Below, piece after piece: positions 283-6,148 of a stretch of DNA of 9,406 bases (position 1 is its first letter; every line of letters starts with the position of its first letter). The position numbers were made by a program, and so were the translations under genes. Under the pieces are notes generated by a model. That model saw only the letters and a program-made list of their open reading frames with translations, was not told the origin of the DNA and did not search any database. This stretch comes from a virus (taxonomy: Duplodnaviria; Heunggongvirae; Uroviricota; Caudoviricetes), in the IMG/VR virus record IMGVR_UViG_2648501787_000010. The stretch is one strand, 5' to 3'.

Positions 283-355
283 TGTGCCCTCATCGTTCCG
301 ATAGCCTGGTGTCGTCGGGTCCTTCCTGGAATTATGGCCCGTTACGGGGCGGCGG

Positions 356-898
356 TTACTCGCCTTTGTTCTGTAGCAACTTCTCAGGCGCGTTTCCGGT
401 AGTTTCCATCAGGTAATCAGCCAGTATCTGTGGCAGGTTTTCGTCAAGTCTTGCACATGCGTTACATGCTTTGGCTATTTCCCTTTTTAGTTCATCCAGC
501 ATATACGGCCTTATATCGGGAAAGCGCCTTTGCATTGTGAGCGGGAGGCTGTCCATGATTGATGAAATCTGACTCGCTAGTTTTGAAATCGCGTAGATGC
601 AAAACTTTGTATCAATCACCTCGCCGCGTTCGCGCTCGTTTTTAAGTTCCTGCGCTTCCGCCTGGGCCGTCATTAATCTGATTCTTACGCGTAAAAGTTC
701 ATCATCATCAATCTCGCCTTTGTCGTTTGTAAGCTGGTTAATTGCATTGTTAACCCTATTGTCTATCACGCTAGCAACATCATAAAACGCCTCACGGCCT
801 TTACGCTCAACGGGAGTTACTCCCCACTTGTCGAACGCTGTCGCACTTACGCGGCAGCTTTGCGCCATAGTTTTTTTGTTCATCAGGTGCGATTTCAT
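356..898 (-). CDS. terminase small subunit, lambda gpNu1-like
   Basis: Translation aligns by eye along its length to lambda Nu1 as recalled from memory: N-terminal MNKK...KWGV..ERKGREAFYDVASVI versus lambda VNKK...NWQEQG..GGGKGNEVLYDSAAVI; central RLMTAQAEAQELKNERERGEVIDTKFCIYAISKLASQISSIMDSLPLTMQRRFP versus lambda RLTRAQADAQELKNARDSAEVVETAFCTFVLSRIAGEIASILDGLPLSVQRRFP. Lies directly downstream of a cos site, as in lambda. Start is ambiguous: in-frame ATGs at 898, 883 and 868 and a GTG at 910; 898 has a G-rich SD-like motif, while 883 gives the MNKK N-terminus that best matches lambda. Confidence 0.9.
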   Translation of the reverse strand: MKSHLMNKKTMAQSCRVSATAFDKWGVTPVERKGREAFYDVASVIDNRVNNAINQLTNDKGEIDDDELLRVRIRLMTAQAEAQELKNERERGEVIDTKFCIYAISKLASQISSIMDSLPLTMQRRFPDIRPYMLDELKREIAKACNACARLDENLPQILADYLMETTGNAPEKLLQNKGE

Positions 899-925
899 CA
901 ATATCCCCACTTAGTTAAGGTTTCA

Positions 926-1000
926 GGTTGGTGTGTTGGTGTTATCTTTCCCTTTTTATTCATAGAGATAGAGCGAAAAACAAAACCACCACCACCAACC
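926..1000 (-). repeat. imperfect inverted repeat between cosN and the terS start; candidate cosB-like binding elements for the small terminase
   Basis: Plus strand 926-943 GGTTGGTGTGTTGGTGTT and 984-1000 AACCACCACCACCAACC (reverse complement GGTTGGTGGTGGTGGTT) are inverted copies separated by about 40 bp of AT-rich DNA. They occupy the position of lambda cosB (R sites) but do not resemble the lambda R-site sequence as I recall it. Confidence 0.45.
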
Positions 1001-1085
1001 CGAAAAGGCTCATAAATAGCGAAAATCCGCAAGGTCGCCGCCCCGTAGCCTGCCGGATCGCCGGAAAGGACCCGCCAGCCAGAAC
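1000..1085 (-). other. lambda-type cohesive end site (cosQ/cosN); predicted 12-nt cohesive end GGGCGGCGACCT at 1032-1043 on the minus strand
   Basis: Minus-strand sequence GGGTCCTTTCCGGCGATCCGGCAGGCTACG-GGGCGGCGACCT-TGCGGATTTTCGCTATTTATGAGCCTTTTCG matches the junction of the lambda right end (...GGGTCCTTTCCGGTGATCCGACAGGTTACG) and left end (GGGCGGCGACCTCGCGGGTTTTCGCTATTTATGAAAATTTTCCGG), recalled from memory, with only scattered substitutions. Orientation and distance to the Nu1-like gene match lambda. Confidence 0.85.
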
Positions 1086-1099
1086 GGGCCCTAATTTCA

Positions 1100-1444
1100 T
1101 CAACCAATCAACTTATTGCGTCCTTTCAGGGCATTACGCCTGGCGCGTTCAATCTTGAGGCATAACGCCGCATCAGGTTTTTCGGGGGTGGGAACAAGGC
1201 AATAATTTGATGCGCGCGGAATGTTGTTAATCCACGCAACAACCTCGCTTAAATACCATGCCTTGCGCCCTTTCGTAACCTGTACGCGTTCGGGGAACTC
1301 TCCGCGAGCTTCAAGGTTTAGCAATGTGCGACGGCTAAGGGTTGTAAGCTCCACTACCTGATCCATATCAACAAGGCGCTCGCTTAAACTCATTTTGTCA
1401 TCGATATCTAATAGCTCTCGTAGCTGACTATCTCTTTCAATCAT
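1100..1444 (-). CDS. AlpA-family (MerR-like winged HTH) DNA-binding protein with C-terminal extension, 114 aa
   Basis: Core LVDMDQVVELTTLSRRTLLNLEARGEFPERVQVTKGRKAWYLSEVVAWI fits the AlpA/Xis-type pattern (HTH, then FP..V....GR.AW...EV.AWI). GAGGT SD about 6 nt upstream of the ATG at 1444, embedded in the 3' end of the gpD-like gene (9-bp gap), so it is co-transcribed with the capsid genes. Stop TGA at 1100-1102. Confidence 0.8.
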   Translation of the reverse strand: MIERDSQLRELLDIDDKMSLSERLVDMDQVVELTTLSRRTLLNLEARGEFPERVQVTKGRKAWYLSEVVAWINNIPRASNYCLVPTPEKPDAALCLKIERARRNALKGRNKLIG

Positions 1445-1453
1445 TCTCGTACC

Positions 1454-1795
1454 TCACACACGTGCCAGCGGCTGAACAGAAATACCTGAGCCAACAAACG
1501 CAGCAACTTTTGCTGATAGTTGTGTTACAGACTCAGGCCAGTTCAGAGCATCAACATTTAAGACGCCGGTTTTATAAACCTGAGCCTGCGTTTTTGTCGC
1601 TGTATCGATTTGTACAGCGGAAACATAAACAGCTTTGCCTGCGCTCGTTCCATCCCATACCACCAGTGCACCAGTTGCATCTTCTTGCATCAGTGGCGTA
1701 AATGCAGGAATTACCCCTTTATTAGCTGAAAATATCCCCAACGTAGTAACCAGTGCTTCAGTGCCAGCCATGAGTTCAGTGTAATGAGTAGCCAT
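1454..1795 (-). CDS. head decoration protein, lambda gpD-like (113 aa)
   Basis: TPLMQEDATGALVVWDGTSAGKAV...VYKTGVLNVDALNWPESV...AAFVGSGISV aligns to lambda gpD [24 protein letters not shown]...FYKSGTFRYEDVLWPEAA...TAFAGTAISIV (from memory). Size matches gpD. Starts 9 bp after the capsid gene stop, with a G-rich SD. Confidence 0.9.
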   Translation of the reverse strand: MATHYTELMAGTEALVTTLGIFSANKGVIPAFTPLMQEDATGALVVWDGTSAGKAVYVSAVQIDTATKTQAQVYKTGVLNVDALNWPESVTQLSAKVAAFVGSGISVQPLARV

Positions 1796-1804
1796 TGCTC
1801 CCCC

Positions 1805-2845
1805 TTAACCAATGCGAACGGTAACAAAACGATTGATGCGGGCCGGTATTGGTTGCGGTGCGCTGTGCGTCTGCACATATTCAATAGCCGGATCACCTGG
1901 TACGATGTAATTTTTCGGCGCAAGTTCGGCTTTAGTCAGCCCCATTCTGATTAACTCAGGATCCTGAATGCCACCGTAGGCAACGATGCCCTGTAATGAT
2001 GTGTTGCCAAGCACCATCAAATCAGGATCAAGGAAATATTTTTCTTTGCCGTCCTCGTCGGTATAACGTCCGCTATATACCACAATAGCAACATCGCCAA
2101 CGTAACCCTTGAAGCTTACAGAATCCCCAAGATTTTTCAGGGTCGTTTCAAGAACGGAATTAGATCCCCGTCGAGTATCAAGGCAATCTTTTACTGCTTT
2201 AAAGGCGCGGTATTTTTTCCATACGTTGCGGCCCATTACGATGATATTTGTAGTACCTTCGCTGATTTCTGCGTACTCTTCGATGTCATCGTTTGGATCA
2301 AATGTTGATAAATCTCTACCGCTCCACTCCGTGCCGCCGGACTGCGTGATAATATTTTGTGGTTTTATATTCCAGTCCAGTTCATAACGTTCAATTCCAT
2401 CGCCTTCAATGATATTTTTCCCCGTTGTAACCGCCTGAACAGCAAGCCACTCAATACGCGCACGAATTGCCTGCGCTTGTCTTACTAACGCTCGCTTTAT
2501 TTTGAAACTGCGTGATGAATATGCATTGAATTGTTCAGGTGATACGCCTGGTTGACGAACGGCTATTTTATTTGGGTCGATACTACTTTTTGGCTTCATA
2601 TAGCCAGGGCGAATTACTTTTGATTCGTAGCCTTCATCGCGTGAGACTTTACTACCAACCATAGGGGAACAAAATGCAGCCATCGGGATGTCTGGATCGT
2701 CAATAATATCAAGCGCAATATCCCGCGTCTCAAATGTAACGACTCGCTTAAAAAACAGGTTTATAAATAAAGAATTAATCTGCCATTGAATATCTTCGGC
2801 ATTAACAACCTGTATTAACATGGCTGGCGAATATAAATCACTCAT
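1805..2845 (-). CDS. major capsid protein, lambda gpE family (346 aa)
   Basis: Several long blocks match lambda gpE as recalled: NIITQSGGTEWSGRDLSTFDPNDDIEEYA versus NITQSGGTEWSKRDKSTYDPTDDIEAYA; FKAVKDCLDTRRGSNSVLETTLKNLG versus FKAVKEKLDTRRGSNSELETAVKDLG; VGDVAIVVYSGRY and MVLGNT are conserved. Length is close to gpE (341 aa). AGAGG SD 5 nt upstream of the ATG at 2843-2845. Confidence 0.95.
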   Translation of the reverse strand: MSDLYSPAMLIQVVNAEDIQWQINSLFINLFFKRVVTFETRDIALDIIDDPDIPMAAFCSPMVGSKVSRDEGYESKVIRPGYMKPKSSIDPNKIAVRQPGVSPEQFNAYSSRSFKIKRALVRQAQAIRARIEWLAVQAVTTGKNIIEGDGIERYELDWNIKPQNIITQSGGTEWSGRDLSTFDPNDDIEEYAEISEGTTNIIVMGRNVWKKYRAFKAVKDCLDTRRGSNSVLETTLKNLGDSVSFKGYVGDVAIVVYSGRYTDEDGKEKYFLDPDLMVLGNTSLQGIVAYGGIQDPELIRMGLTKAELAPKNYIVPGDPAIEYVQTHSAPQPIPARINRFVTVRIG

Positions 2846-3079: not shown

Positions 3080-3102
3080 GATAAAAGCCGGATTGCTCCG
3101 GC
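3080..3102 (-). terminator. rho-independent terminator for the ssb-containing transcript
   Basis: On the minus strand GCCGGA-GCAA-TCCGGC hairpin followed by TTTTAT, 17 bp downstream of the SSB stop codon (3119-3121). Confidence 0.5.
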
Positions 3103-3118
3103 CTCTGTTACTCGTTGC

Positions 3119-3541
3119 TTAAAACGGTATGTTATCCCCGTACGGATCATCATTTCCCGCCTGTTGTTTTGCCCTGTTCAGTGCGTCAGTAGCCTGCCCC
3201 TGTTGACCTTTTTTGCCGCCCGGTCGCGCCGTTCTGGCACTGATTACACTGTCTGCGATAACCTGCCAGCCCTGCCGCGTTTCGCCGTTCTGGCCTGTCC
3301 ACTGGCTCACCTGCATATTACCCGCCACGCTCAGGAGTTCGCCTTTGTGGTGTTTTGCCAGTGCGTCGGCCTGTCTGCCAAACGCCAGGACAGATAACCA
3401 CATCGTCGCCGTTCCGTCATCTGCCTGGCTGCACGGCAGGGGAACCGCCATACCCGCCATCGCCATTTGTGTCCCTTTGCTGGTGGTCTTTAACTGCGGG
3501 TCAGCCACCAGCCGACCGTAAGCTGCTATCTGTGCTGTCAT
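3119..3541 (-). CDS. ssb: single-stranded DNA-binding protein (SSB-like), 140 aa, with C-terminal ...GDNIPF tail
   Basis: OB-fold pattern parallels E. coli SSB (GRLVADPQLKTT...G..MAMAGMAV versus GNLGQDPEVRYM...G.AVANITLA; W..V.AFG..A...AK...KG versus [21 protein letters not shown]), followed by a Gly/Gln-rich linker and an acidic tip ending IPF, like the DDDIPF tail of bacterial SSB. Start ATG (3539-3541) overlaps the stop of the upstream ORF by 4 bp. Confidence 0.85.
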   Translation of the reverse strand: MTAQIAAYGRLVADPQLKTTSKGTQMAMAGMAVPLPCSQADDGTATMWLSVLAFGRQADALAKHHKGELLSVAGNMQVSQWTGQNGETRQGWQVIADSVISARTARPGGKKGQQGQATDALNRAKQQAGNDDPYGDNIPF

Positions 3542-3816
3542 GCAGTCTGCTCTCCGGTTTTAACGTTGATGGTTGTCACCTGTTCAGCTTCCGCAATCTC
3601 CCGCTCTGTCAGCGTGGCAAAATTTGCCGCCGTCGTGGTCATGAATGCGCTTATCAGTTCGGGATGTGCTTTCGCGTATCCTTCCCCCGCGTGGCGGTCT
3701 ATCGTTCTGATTGCCACCTTTAAAGCGTGCTCTGTCATGTCTAACGCGCGATATTTCGGTTCTGTTCTGTCTCTGCGTTTTTTGAGTGATTTATTAAATT
3801 TCCCTGAAGTGTGCAT
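3538..3816 (-). CDS. hypothetical protein (92 aa), translationally coupled to ssb
   Basis: ORF with GAGGGGG upstream of the ATG at 3814-3816 (spacing somewhat long); an alternative internal ATG at 3736-3738 lacks an SD. Stop overlaps the ssb start. No recognisable motif. Confidence 0.5.
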   Translation of the reverse strand: MHTSGKFNKSLKKRRDRTEPKYRALDMTEHALKVAIRTIDRHAGEGYAKAHPELISAFMTTTAANFATLTEREIAEAEQVTTINVKTGEQTA

Positions 3817-4104: not shown

Positions 4105-5859
4105 TTATAAAAACGCGTCGCACTCGTCTGTTGTTATTGCGTTAGTCTGCGTTACTCCCTTAACTTTCCGCGTAATATATTCATGTCCGTAAACTTTCGC
4201 GGCTGGCTTCATAGCCTTGCCAAAGTCATTTACGTTTAGCGGTTTGCTCCTGCCTGCGTACGCCATAAACGCCAGATAGACGCGGTAAAGGCTGTTTCTG
4301 GTCGTGTACTTCACTGAATCGCCACCGCCGCCCATCATCAGGCCGCGTGCTTCCTCCAGAAAATTCAGGAACTGGCAAAACTCAATAACCGGATCCGTCT
4401 GTTGCTTTATTGCCAGTGCTTCATCACCGTCACGCTGTTCAATGAGTAAAGCCCGTGCCTTTTCAGGGTCGGCAAAGTTCGCCAGCAAGCGGCGGATAAT
4501 GACAGGGATTTCAGCCGCGATCTTTTCCGGTAGCTCCCTGTCTTTTTCTGCCTCGCTTACGATGTTATCGAACCGGAATATCACCCGACGACGTGCCACA
4601 CCTCCGGCCCGTTCGGTGAATATCATCGGATTGTTATTGGTTGCCAGCACCACCGCCCTGATTACCGCCGTAAAACGCTTTTCATATTTCGGGTTAATTT
4701 CCACGGGGTCGCCGCCCGTGATTTTCTTGATGCCCGTTCCTTCGCCTGTATATTTCGGCTGGTCTGCCAGGACGATAAGCCGACTCCCGACAACCTGCGC
4801 ACGCCCACCAGCATCATCAAGCGATGTCATCTCAGCGCTTACTGTGTTCTGTTTCCCTGCCAGAAGGCTGGCTATGTGCGTAAATGTACTCTTGCCGCTC
4901 CCGCCGTCTCCTGTGGCCTCAATAAACATCTGCCAGTCGTACCGGTTCGCCATAATCATGTATAGCGCGGCACATATGCGCATCATCTTGCCCGGGTCTT
5001 TTCCGGCTGCGTGATCAAGCCATTTATGAAAGTTTGGCGCGTTGTCGCGGATATTCTCCCCTGGTACTGGCGGCGTGTACTCAATGCCGTTGTGTGTGGT
5101 GATCCAGTTATCAGGCGAGTGCGGGGAAAATTCCCCTGTTTTCAGGTCAAGCACGCCATTAGCGAACGGCAGCAAATCACCGGACGGCTCGCCCATTGGT
5201 TCGGCAATAACTTTTAACGCTTCAATGGCGTTACTGATTACGCGCTTGCTGAAAGTGGCTTTATGTTCTGAATAAATCGCCACCATTTCGCGGCTCAGTT
5301 CCATTGTGCTGACCGGACACCATACCCCGCCGCGCCAGACGTGGATGATTTCACTTTCCGGATGCACACAAACGCTATCAAAGCGATCGACAAGCAGTTG
5401 CGCGCGCTCACTGTCCGCCATCTGCGAAAGCTGCATTTTTTGCTTTACCGGAAGCTCAATAACCAGCCCATCAGAAAGATTCTGGCGTTCACGGGCCAGA
5501 TATTCGCGCCAGTTCTCCACCTTCTTACCGTGCATTCCCTCAGGGTAAAAATTTGCATCCTGTACGCCTGCCGCAGCCAGATTCTGACCAATCGCCTTAA
5601 TCATTACAGGCGCAAGATGTCCGGCTCTGTAGATACGAGCGTATGTTCGGCCTTCCGGTACAATCTGTAGATTATCCAGTTCGGATAGCTGCTGCTCTCC
5701 AAGCCACACAGGAGGCTCATTATCTCCGGCTGTACGCGCGTCGTGTTCCTGCCACTGTTTCGCGTGTGACCAGGCATCACTACCCGCAAAAATGATCACT
5801 TCGGTTTGTTCGTGTTTTATTCCGCGAGGCTGTTTTTTTACGTTCGGTGCCAGTTTCAT
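4105..5859 (-). CDS. P4-family DNA primase/helicase (replication initiator), 584 aa
   Basis: Walker A box GDGGSGKST followed by a hydrophobic-acidic Walker B-like segment (RLIVLADQ), with a large N-terminal domain, consistent with the P4 alpha / D5-type primase-helicase architecture. Start ATG 5857-5859 overlaps the stop of the upstream ORF (ATGA) and is preceded by a GGGGG SD. Stop TAA at 4105-4107. Confidence 0.9.
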   Translation of the reverse strand: MKLAPNVKKQPRGIKHEQTEVIIFAGSDAWSHAKQWQEHDARTAGDNEPPVWLGEQQLSELDNLQIVPEGRTYARIYRAGHLAPVMIKAIGQNLAAAGVQDANFYPEGMHGKKVENWREYLARERQNLSDGLVIELPVKQKMQLSQMADSERAQLLVDRFDSVCVHPESEIIHVWRGGVWCPVSTMELSREMVAIYSEHKATFSKRVISNAIEALKVIAEPMGEPSGDLLPFANGVLDLKTGEFSPHSPDNWITTHNGIEYTPPVPGENIRDNAPNFHKWLDHAAGKDPGKMMRICAALYMIMANRYDWQMFIEATGDGGSGKSTFTHIASLLAGKQNTVSAEMTSLDDAGGRAQVVGSRLIVLADQPKYTGEGTGIKKITGGDPVEINPKYEKRFTAVIRAVVLATNNNPMIFTERAGGVARRRVIFRFDNIVSEAEKDRELPEKIAAEIPVIIRRLLANFADPEKARALLIEQRDGDEALAIKQQTDPVIEFCQFLNFLEEARGLMMGGGGDSVKYTTRNSLYRVYLAFMAYAGRSKPLNVNDFGKAMKPAAKVYGHEYITRKVKGVTQTNAITTDECDAFL

Positions 5860-6143
5860 TTCTTACCCCCTGCGACCAGCATTTCACGGATTTTGCGGAT
5901 ATGACTTGCTGCACGTTTCTGATTTACGGCTTTACGATGGCCCACCAGCGTGAAATCACGCCGGAATTGATAAACAGGCATCACGCAATCATATTCGTAA
6001 CCTTCACGGCGGTAGGTGATGCGCCGTTCTGCCACGCCTTTAATCGTTACCATGCCGCCATATTTATCGCGGTAAATATCGCCGTTCATAAATTCAGGAC
6101 GAGCGGGGCCGCTGGCAGTAACGCCAGAATTTTTATTTTTCAT
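5856..6143 (-). CDS. hypothetical basic protein (95 aa), translationally coupled to the primase
   Basis: ORF with GGAG upstream of the ATG at 6141-6143; stop overlaps the primase start codon. No recognisable motif. Confidence 0.55.
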   Translation of the reverse strand: MKNKNSGVTASGPARPEFMNGDIYRDKYGGMVTIKGVAERRITYRREGYEYDCVMPVYQFRRDFTLVGHRKAVNQKRAASHIRKIREMLVAGGKK

Positions 6144-6148
6144 GTTTT

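Follow-up and report, generated by a model that had tools for sequence, protein, structure and literature searches.

We analyzed a 9,406-nucleotide stretch of viral DNA (Duplodnaviria; Heunggongvirae; Uroviricota; Caudoviricetes; IMG/VR record IMGVR_UViG_2648501787_000010), referred to below as the window, with particular attention to its minus-strand region 356–2845. Along the transcript, this region holds genes for an E-type major capsid protein (E), a head decoration protein (D) and a protein of the AlpA family, followed by a cos site and the gene for a Nu1-like small terminase (TerS). An earlier note on this DNA had proposed this order and these positions, and Pfam matches and an exact cosN bear them out throughout, as they do the reversal relative to lambda, where D (5747–6079) precedes E (6135–7160). 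The pairing of cos with a Nu1-like terS likewise stands, on the basis of an exact cohesive-end 12-mer and an end-to-end alignment with Nu1. The genes are not fused, as that note had it, since E, D and the AlpA-like gene are separate open reading frames (ORFs) with 9-nt spacers. Nor is this a novel minimal head module; the arrangement is the published late module of Gram-negative phage-inducible chromosomal islands (PICIs). We consider it quite likely that the window is the gene span of a Gram-negative PICI of the EcCICFT073 family, a ∼10-kb satellite of lambda-like cos phages, and that 356–2845 is the late (morphogenesis and packaging) module of this classical PICI; the grading applies jointly to the whole explanation, including the packaging scheme and the reading of E and D given below. 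The features are collected in Table 1.

The E protein matches Pfam family PF03864 Phage_cap_E (E = 3.4e-41, 141.8 bits against a cut-off of 22.9) and PHROG 29. It is 42% identical to lambda gpE over 336 residues, aligned from residue 12 to the C-terminus, and the lengths are 346 and 341 residues, respectively. An AlphaFold model of E based on 53 homologues has a mean predicted local distance difference test score (pLDDT) of 86.8 and superposes on full-length gpE (PDB 7SJ5; template modelling (TM) score 0.93) and on 3BQW (TM 0.97), predicting a complete HK97 fold. The built-in scaffolding (delta) domain that had been suggested for the N-terminal part of E is rejected on the same length and fold data. 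PDB entry 3BQW corresponds exactly to c1499 of EcCICFT073 (351/351), to which window E is 53–55% identical; its 2008 deposition names it a "putative capsid protein of prophage (E. coli CFT073)", not a satellite protein. The D protein matches PF02924 HDPD (E = 2.6e-16, 60.2 bits against a cut-off of 29.1) and is 41% identical to lambda gpD over 78 residues, with an N-terminal region that has diverged from gpD. Its best PDB matches are the "Head decoration protein" entries 1TD0/1TD3 (9e-17); the decoration chain of the lambda capsid, 7VII_H, reaches 9e-13.

Comparison with database proteins sets window E apart from the coat proteins of phages. Satellite E proteins are 50–98% identical to it; then follows a gap, and the phage-type E proteins all lie at ≤43%, being themselves 57–96% identical to lambda E. 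The search returned no phage record with an E more than 60% identical to window E. Alignment reveals motifs that every satellite E protein of the two sub-lineages has and phage E lacks, for example AFCSPMVGS, EWLAVxAxTTGKN (long helix) and PGDPAIEYVQTHSAPQP (close to the C-terminus). Three islands interrupt a lambdoid E gene; their E proteins are 40–44% identical to the E of their own helpers, no closer than to lambda E. For pairs with unsaturated synonymous sites, the ratio of nonsynonymous to synonymous substitution rates (dN/dS) is 0.02–0.09 for E and 0.04–0.11 for D, indicating that both genes are under strong purifying selection. These comparisons characterize E and D as functional proteins of an old, satellite-only lineage.

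Three observations concern individual E genes. Window E nucleotides 495–524 (window ∼2322–2351) are identical to lambda E nucleotides 483–512, a 30-nt exact run encoding ITQSGGTEWS in genes that are otherwise ∼55% identical by a rough nucleotide-level estimate; the E. coli island L003 shares at most 17 nt. The patch looks like a short gene conversion from a helper E gene. A metagenome scaffold (L019, 2801–3829, protein P0046) carries a chimeric capsid gene in which approximately residues 1–225 are identical to lambda E and the C-terminal third to a satellite E of the P0003 type, with lambda-type protease and D genes before it and a satellite D after it; the crossover falls at a 17-nt shared stretch. 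This gene is either a helper–satellite recombinant or an assembly artefact. Finally, a 463-residue E–D fusion (P0002, 98% identical to window E) on a single 3.2-kb contig most likely reflects a sequencing error in the stop codon of E that produced an apparent read-through.

The block of E, D, AlpA-like gene and cos recurs, with intact ORFs of the same length, in islands of E. coli (L003), Kluyvera (L005), Superficieibacter (L006), Cedecea (L007), Kosakonia (L008) and Serratia (L014), that is, in at least six genera. Related E–D pairs occur in Edwardsiella and Salmonella islands, and the order is always E–D. A search of genome contigs with the E protein, which reaches close relatives only, gave four loci; the further loci came from contigs that encode related proteins. 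The module has matches in 1052 of 5426 complete E. coli genomes (about a fifth) and is also found in Salmonella, Serratia, Edwardsiella, Kluyvera, Cedecea and Kosakonia.

All ORFs of substantial size with family matches lie on the minus strand across the window (ORF list, Pfam and PHROG), and since the window begins and ends exactly at gene ends, it spans the genes of one element. The features by which a Gram-negative PICI can be recognized from its sequence are present: an integrase gene (int) at one end with co-oriented genes, AlpA, a primase, a capsid homologue, terS with cos, the size, and no tail, lysis, portal or large terminase (TerL) genes. The same three sources, applied to the whole 9.4 kb, identify no portal, protease, scaffold or TerL gene and no tail, lysis, head–tail connector or HNH gene. 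Thus the lack of portal, protease and scaffold that the earlier note had observed between E and terS extends to the rest of the window. Its corollary is supported as well: because the island has a coat and a decoration protein and lacks portal, protease and scaffold, any shell of these proteins would need helper parts. The case that was to overturn it, in which the missing head genes lie just outside the window, does not apply; in E. coli MEW (L001; island at NZ_CM192120 2301591–2311010), where the module is 100% and the entire island 97% identical, the island is bordered by host genes, with yejO at one end and tRNA-Pro/yejM at the other. There is a single candidate attachment (att) sequence, the 16-nt direct repeat AACGTGTAGCTAAAAA, copies of which lie to either side of the MEW island (L001 6984 and 17496–17511). 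A capsid-forming PICI is ruled out by the lack of portal, protease, connectors, HNH and TerL in the window. Searches of ten window proteins against NCBIfam and PADLOC gave zero matches, as did Rfam at its gathering thresholds, and the window contains no tRNAs.

The E, D and Nu1-like genes are homologous to lambda genes, as they would be if the window were the remnant of a lambdoid prophage in decay, with head genes left over and functionless. We regard this as extremely unlikely, given that the gene order is constant and the ORFs intact across six genera, that dN/dS is far below 1, that E belongs to a satellite-only clade, that the full int–AlpA–primase satellite backbone is present, and that the module is so common in E. 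coli.

Table 1. Features of the window, with the late module first
Feature	Position	Strand	Basis
E-type major capsid protein, 346 aa	1805–2845	−	Pfam Phage_cap_E
Head decoration protein, gpD/SHP family, 113 aa	1454–1795	−	Pfam HDPD
Second AlpA-family protein, 114 aa	1100–1444	−	Pfam Phage_AlpA
Non-coding gap holding cos	899–1099	−	
cos core (cosQ–cosN–I2)	1010–1073	−	64-nt lambda-like block
Satellite-type cosB	921–1005	−	G/T-rich tract and inverted repeat
Nu1-family small terminase, 180 aa	356–898	−	Pfam Phage_Nu1
Stub of second, inverted cos	317–354	+	38-mer match
TTGCA-type direct repeats	2902–2937	−	Pattern comparison
Candidate terminator, hairpin and U-run	3083–3106	−	Folding
Single-stranded DNA-binding protein (SSB)	3119–3541	−	Pfam/PHROG
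PHROG 1231 protein	3538–3816	−	PHROG
D5-type primase (D5_N, DUF5906, Pox_D5)	4105–5859	−	Pfam; 95% identical to EcCICFT073 primase
Small ORFs, including DUF4222 protein (5856–6143)	between AlpA and primase	−	Pfam/PHROG
AlpA protein next to int, 68 aa	7433–7639	−	PF05930, 5.6e-9
Tyrosine integrase (arm-binding, central and catalytic domains)	8165–9406	−	Pfam
Conserved 93-aa protein found after terS or rpp in such islands	1–282	−	PHROG 1561, 1.2e-56

The TerS protein is full length and matches PF07471 Phage_Nu1 with an E-value of 9e-24. It is 37% identical to lambda Nu1 over 179 residues, with residues 6–166 of 180 aligned to Nu1 3–180. For the start of translation, the ATG at 898, chosen by RefSeq, and the one at 883, which matches the lambda and N15 starts in the alignment, are both more likely than GTG 910. 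The closest phage TerS is gp1 of N15, at 48% identity, and the N-terminal DNA-binding domain is N15-like; no phage TerS in the database search is more than 60% identical to the island protein. In its C-terminal half, the protein can be aligned with the part of Nu1 to which gpA (TerL) binds, suggesting that a TerL-binding function may be retained. This distinguishes the protein from the Rpp proteins, which have 139–154 residues, consist of a DNA-binding domain and a dimerisation helix without the TerL-binding tail, and act via the helper TerS (PMC6739421; PMC9026076). BLAST detects no similarity between TerS and RppA, and a sequence search of the PDB with TerS matched neither lambda Nu1 (1J9I) nor the RppC chains, the N-terminal domain of the query having diverged too far from that of lambda. 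An Rpp identity is ruled out by the length of 180 residues, the Nu1 C-terminal region and the lack of RppA and RppC matches, and with it an Rpp-type island, the DNA-recognition protein being a full-length TerS.

The cos site lies directly upstream of this gene. The exact lambda cohesive-end 12-mer, GGGCGGCGACCT, occurs at 1032–1043 on the minus strand, 134 nt upstream of the TerS ATG at 898, and is the sole exact match in the window. It sits in a block of 64 nt with five mismatches to lambda cosQ–cosN–I2 and with lambda spacing, including the I2-like element CGCTATTTATGA. The adjoining cosB is of a different type; it consists of a G/T-rich (GGT)n-(GTT)n tract and an inverted repeat, TTTCGGGTTGGTG ... 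CACCAACCTGAAA, whose 13-nt arms (921–933 and 993–1005) are 92% complementary, and none of the lambda cosB sites (R3-I1-R2-R1) are present in the window cosB region. The islands that carry terS, namely those of the window, O157 (L004), L006 and L008, share an TGGTGGTGGTGGT-TTGTT tract and a distal ACACCAACCTGAA, neither of which is seen in their terS-less relatives. The terS-less islands of the same E/D lineage (L003, L005) have recognizable lambda-type R3, R2 and R1. Across the compared islands, the type of cosB co-varies with the presence of terS. In N15, R3 is the G/T-rich GAGGTTGTTGTTT at bp 48–60 (Feiss et al. 2015, as reviewed in PMC9026076); the tract in the window lies at bp 45–68 in a different register and is accompanied by an additional inverted repeat, and whereas N15 has its own cosN variant, the window cosN has the lambda sequence. 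As a side observation, there is a CACCACCACCAC in the Rpp-type cosB at cos1 of EcCICFT073 (L011 ∼32600–32625), which on the opposite strand reads as the GGTGGTGGTGG tract of terS-type islands; these could be related recognition elements or a chance match. RefSeq also annotates a 69-residue hypothetical protein (898–1107, minus strand; WP_001299375.1 in L001) that spans the whole of cos. We doubt this ORF because of the overlap with cos; the conserved cos sequence probably leaves it open by chance.

The third gene of the module and the signals around it bear on how E and D might be expressed. The AlpA-like protein matches PF05930 Phage_AlpA (8.7e-8), PHROG 2790 and the AlpA-family structure 8C3T (5e-10), on which nothing relevant was found in the literature. 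This winged-helix protein is always linked to the E/D lineage of the window; copies 70–76% identical follow D in L003 and L005–L008, and in L014 a 117-residue AlpA-family ORF follows D. It is a candidate regulator or excisionase. The 273-nt gap between ssb and E is AT-rich. At its ssb end, just past the stop codon, is a hairpin with a U-run (−15.2 kcal/mol, z = −4.3 relative to shuffles), which a scan of the window for consensus terminators did not report and which may be a terminator parting the replication genes from the capsid module. Repeats of (A/T)TTGCA(C/T), with a 10-nt period and in three to four copies, lie 60–90 nt upstream of the E start. They are kept at the same place in the window, L003, L005, L006 and L008, and degenerate copies (TTGTAC, TTGTGC) can be seen by eye in L007 and L014. 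The pattern is expected by chance 0.43 times per window and is observed three times, once at this place. In L004 and L011, the c1499-type islands, it finds no match; these also have a different gene after D, with no AlpA-like gene, and other genes upstream of E. We take the repeats to be a candidate operator or activator site of an E–D–AlpA promoter, and the arrangement suggests that E–D–AlpA-like–cos–terS forms its own transcription unit with a dedicated regulator site. That the linked AlpA-like protein regulates this unit is speculation from a correlation within one lineage.

Combining these elements, we propose that the island is packaged with its own DNA-recognition subunit. The helper gpA-type TerL would be able to cut the island cosN, since the cosQ–cosN–I2 core is nearly that of lambda; the island TerS would bind the satellite-specific cosB and recruit the helper TerL; and island concatemers would be packaged into helper-built heads. 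Island packaging would thus be the cos-type counterpart of the SaPI (Staphylococcus aureus pathogenicity island) TerS strategy. With regard to E and D, our best guess would be that they are real shell subunits that assemble with the helper portal, scaffold and protease, either to form shells of the satellite's own or to enter helper shells. They would be expressed as a separate unit together with the second AlpA protein, from a promoter with the conserved repeats, and any benefit may be visible only with some natural helpers.

Several points weigh against this proposal. The binding of TerS to cosB and to the helper TerL is deduced solely from homology and co-occurrence; the co-occurrence of cosB type and terS comes from a handful of related islands that are not phylogenetically independent; and the terminator and promoter calls derive from patterns in the DNA. 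In EcCICFT073, deletion of c1499 or c1500 neither restored lambda plating nor altered transfer, and the DNA in particles was all phage-sized (PMC6092414). Unchanged transfer after such deletions is what the earlier note had listed as refuting its idea. When EcCICFT073 genes downstream of ori were expressed singly, only c1503 (RppA) blocked lambda, and deletion of c1503 fully restored lambda plating (PMC6739421). These null results leave a structural role of E and D unproven and the genes dispensable under laboratory conditions. The experiments come from a sister lineage, with an E that is 55% identical, and from few helpers, so they make a capsid-building role less likely without eliminating it. 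Our literature searches found no work after 2019 on what the capsid or decoration genes of PICIs do.

A more specific possibility is that E and D build satellite capsids of smaller triangulation (T) number on the helper portal, scaffold and protease, excluding the helper genome in the manner of SaPIbov5 Ccm. The observations that speak for it are the coat homologue in a satellite without other head genes, the strong selection and satellite-only lineage, and the dedicated D partner with its diverged N-terminal region. There are also precedents: Ccm is a capsid homologue that makes T=4 SaPI capsids (PMC8569155), and PmCI172 encodes a capsid homologue and makes small capsids (PMC6092414). If the 16-nt repeat is att, the unit would be ∼10.5 kb, and two units would fill a T=4 lambda-type head by a rough scaling of capacity with T^1.5, which is arithmetic rather than evidence. 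Four such units also fit a normal lambda head, however, so that no small capsid is required, and the phage-sized DNA and the deletion results for interference and transfer in EcCICFT073 argue in the other direction. We therefore hold small-capsid formation to be rather unlikely, and only tentatively entertain the idea that the satellite-only E/D pair builds the island's own shell, possibly of smaller T, with natural helpers. If it does, the classical enterobacterial PICIs would be intermediate between capsid-stealing satellites and capsid-forming PICIs, and the negative EcCICFT073 result would stem from the choice of laboratory helpers.

The location of some related islands raises another possibility, that E and D serve as spare coat genes or complement helpers whose own E or D is disrupted, incompatible or repressed, with no redirection of size. 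Islands of the same lineage lie within the E gene of lambdoid prophages at approximately codon 82 in E. coli (L003), Cedecea (L007) and Kosakonia (L008) (see also PMC10111431), and both the chimeric scaffold gene and the 30-nt run described above would fit an exchange between the two kinds of E. The window island, however, adjoins tRNA-Pro and is not within a helper gene, and the chimera may be an assembly artefact. Moreover, excision restores the helper E gene (PMC10111431), so a spare copy is unneeded, and simple substitution is doubtful when the island E is 42% identical to helper E and resembles that of its own helper no more closely. We judge this explanation improbable. Still less probable is a role of E and D in interference, in which they would poison the assembly of helper capsids. 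Satellites often interfere at the capsid step, and a diverged coat protein could conceivably cap or distort helper shells; however, single EcCICFT073 genes, c1503 excepted, left lambda plaques unreduced when over-expressed, deletion of c1503 was by itself sufficient to restore plating, and the c1499 and c1500 deletions gave no relief.

The nearest well-studied relative of the window island is EcCICFT073, which we located in the CFT073 genome at L011 22930–33654 and which is a sister lineage by E and D identity. The order of its genes is alike: int, alpA, DUF4222, primase, SSB, capsid, decoration, a small gene, cos, a DNA-recognition gene, the second cos position and the 93-residue ORF, with a lambda-type cosQ/cosN like that of the window. 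The identities are 95% for the primase, 71% for SSB, 78% for the 93-residue ORF (which is 87% identical to its O157 island counterpart), 55% for E and 54% for D. The two islands differ in the gene after D, which in EcCICFT073 encodes a 137-residue protein unrelated to the AlpA-like protein of the window, and in the DNA-recognition gene, where the 144-residue RppA stands in place of the 180-residue TerS. The helper-embedded PICIs of the "11capE" type (Mageeney et al. 2023, PMC10111431) belong to the same E/D/AlpA lineage (L003: E 84%, D 95%, AlpA-like 76%) and have cos at the same position. They sit inside the helper E gene without terS and with a lambda-type cosB, whereas the window island lies beside tRNA-Pro with its own terS and cosB.

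Among more distant systems, SaPIbov5 (Carpena 2016; Hawkins 2021, PMC8569155) is likewise a cos-packaged satellite that has a helper-capsid homologue and no portal or protease. Its Ccm occupies pentons and gives rise to T=4 capsids; the E. coli sister of the window island gave phage-sized DNA. The window island also encodes a decoration protein, in contrast with SaPIbov5, and Ccm and window E belong to families unrelated at the sequence level. As a lead by analogy, Ccm may be the nearest functional counterpart of the island coat gene. The capsid-forming PICIs (EcCIEDL933; bioRxiv 10.1101/2022.09.08.507074) have the same int–alpA–rep backbone and their own coat protein, but encode portal, protease, connectors, HNH, TerS and TerL, of which the window has only TerS. 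Lambda itself shares homologous E, D and Nu1, an identical cohesive end and a cos immediately upstream of terS, and differs in having A, W, B, C and Nu3, which are absent from the window.

The capsid-type genes c1499 and c1500 of EcCICFT073 have been described (PMC6092414), and of 29 reference Gram-negative PICIs, 21 have a major capsid gene (PMC10111431). The PICI core used by SatelliteFinder comprises integrase, regulator, primase-replicase, capsid morphogenesis and small terminase, and PICIs with all five components are nearly confined to E. coli (bioRxiv 10.1101/2022.09.14.508007). The architecture, the family and the crystal structure of a homologous coat protein are thus already public, so that the discovery of the module adds little and the function of E and D is the point of real interest. 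Sister-lineage experiments found no role for these strongly conserved coat and decoration genes, and establishing their function would close a gap in the understanding of how the commonest enterobacterial satellites spread. The N15-like TerS domain, the G/T-rich cosB, the repeats upstream of E and the second-cos stub are less well described. The terS-carrying variant provides a natural comparison with the Rpp islands, as it appears to have its own complete DNA-recognition subunit with N15-like specificity, and it is relevant to the published proposal that TerS gave rise to Rpp.

The second-cos stub contains the cosQ block and the first 8 nt of cosN and ends in an abrupt junction with the 3′ end of terS (stop codon 356–358). 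Its exact 38-mer is common to a complete second cos in the O157:H7 island (L004, cosN 7048, plus strand), and a near-identical complete second cos occupies the same place in EcCICFT073 (L011, cosN 33308, minus strand). Both complete sites have phage-type tripartite cosB repeats, and relative to them about 200 bp is deleted in the window. The stub is relevant to a question raised in the literature, namely why two cos sites occur in some PICIs.

Several related islands have unusual locations. In Salmonella enterica (L016 and L017, island ∼3292–12980), the E–D pair is found in the late-gene regions of P2-like prophages, at two different places, and L016 also has an AlpA-like gene after D. Since the cos block of both islands, GGGTCCTTCCTGG ... 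CGCTATTTATGA, is of the lambda family, a P2-like helper is rejected, and the P2-like prophage probably serves as a landing site. In Edwardsiella tarda (L012, 786–10394), the island lies in the portal gene of a lambdoid prophage and has E and D, with no AlpA-like gene or terS before the portal gene resumes. Finally, in E. coli MEW, the ∼1 kb from the left AACGTGTAGCTAAAAA copy to the 93-residue ORF (L001 6984–8000) has no annotated gene and contains three 29-nt direct repeats, at 7613, 7746 and 7835.

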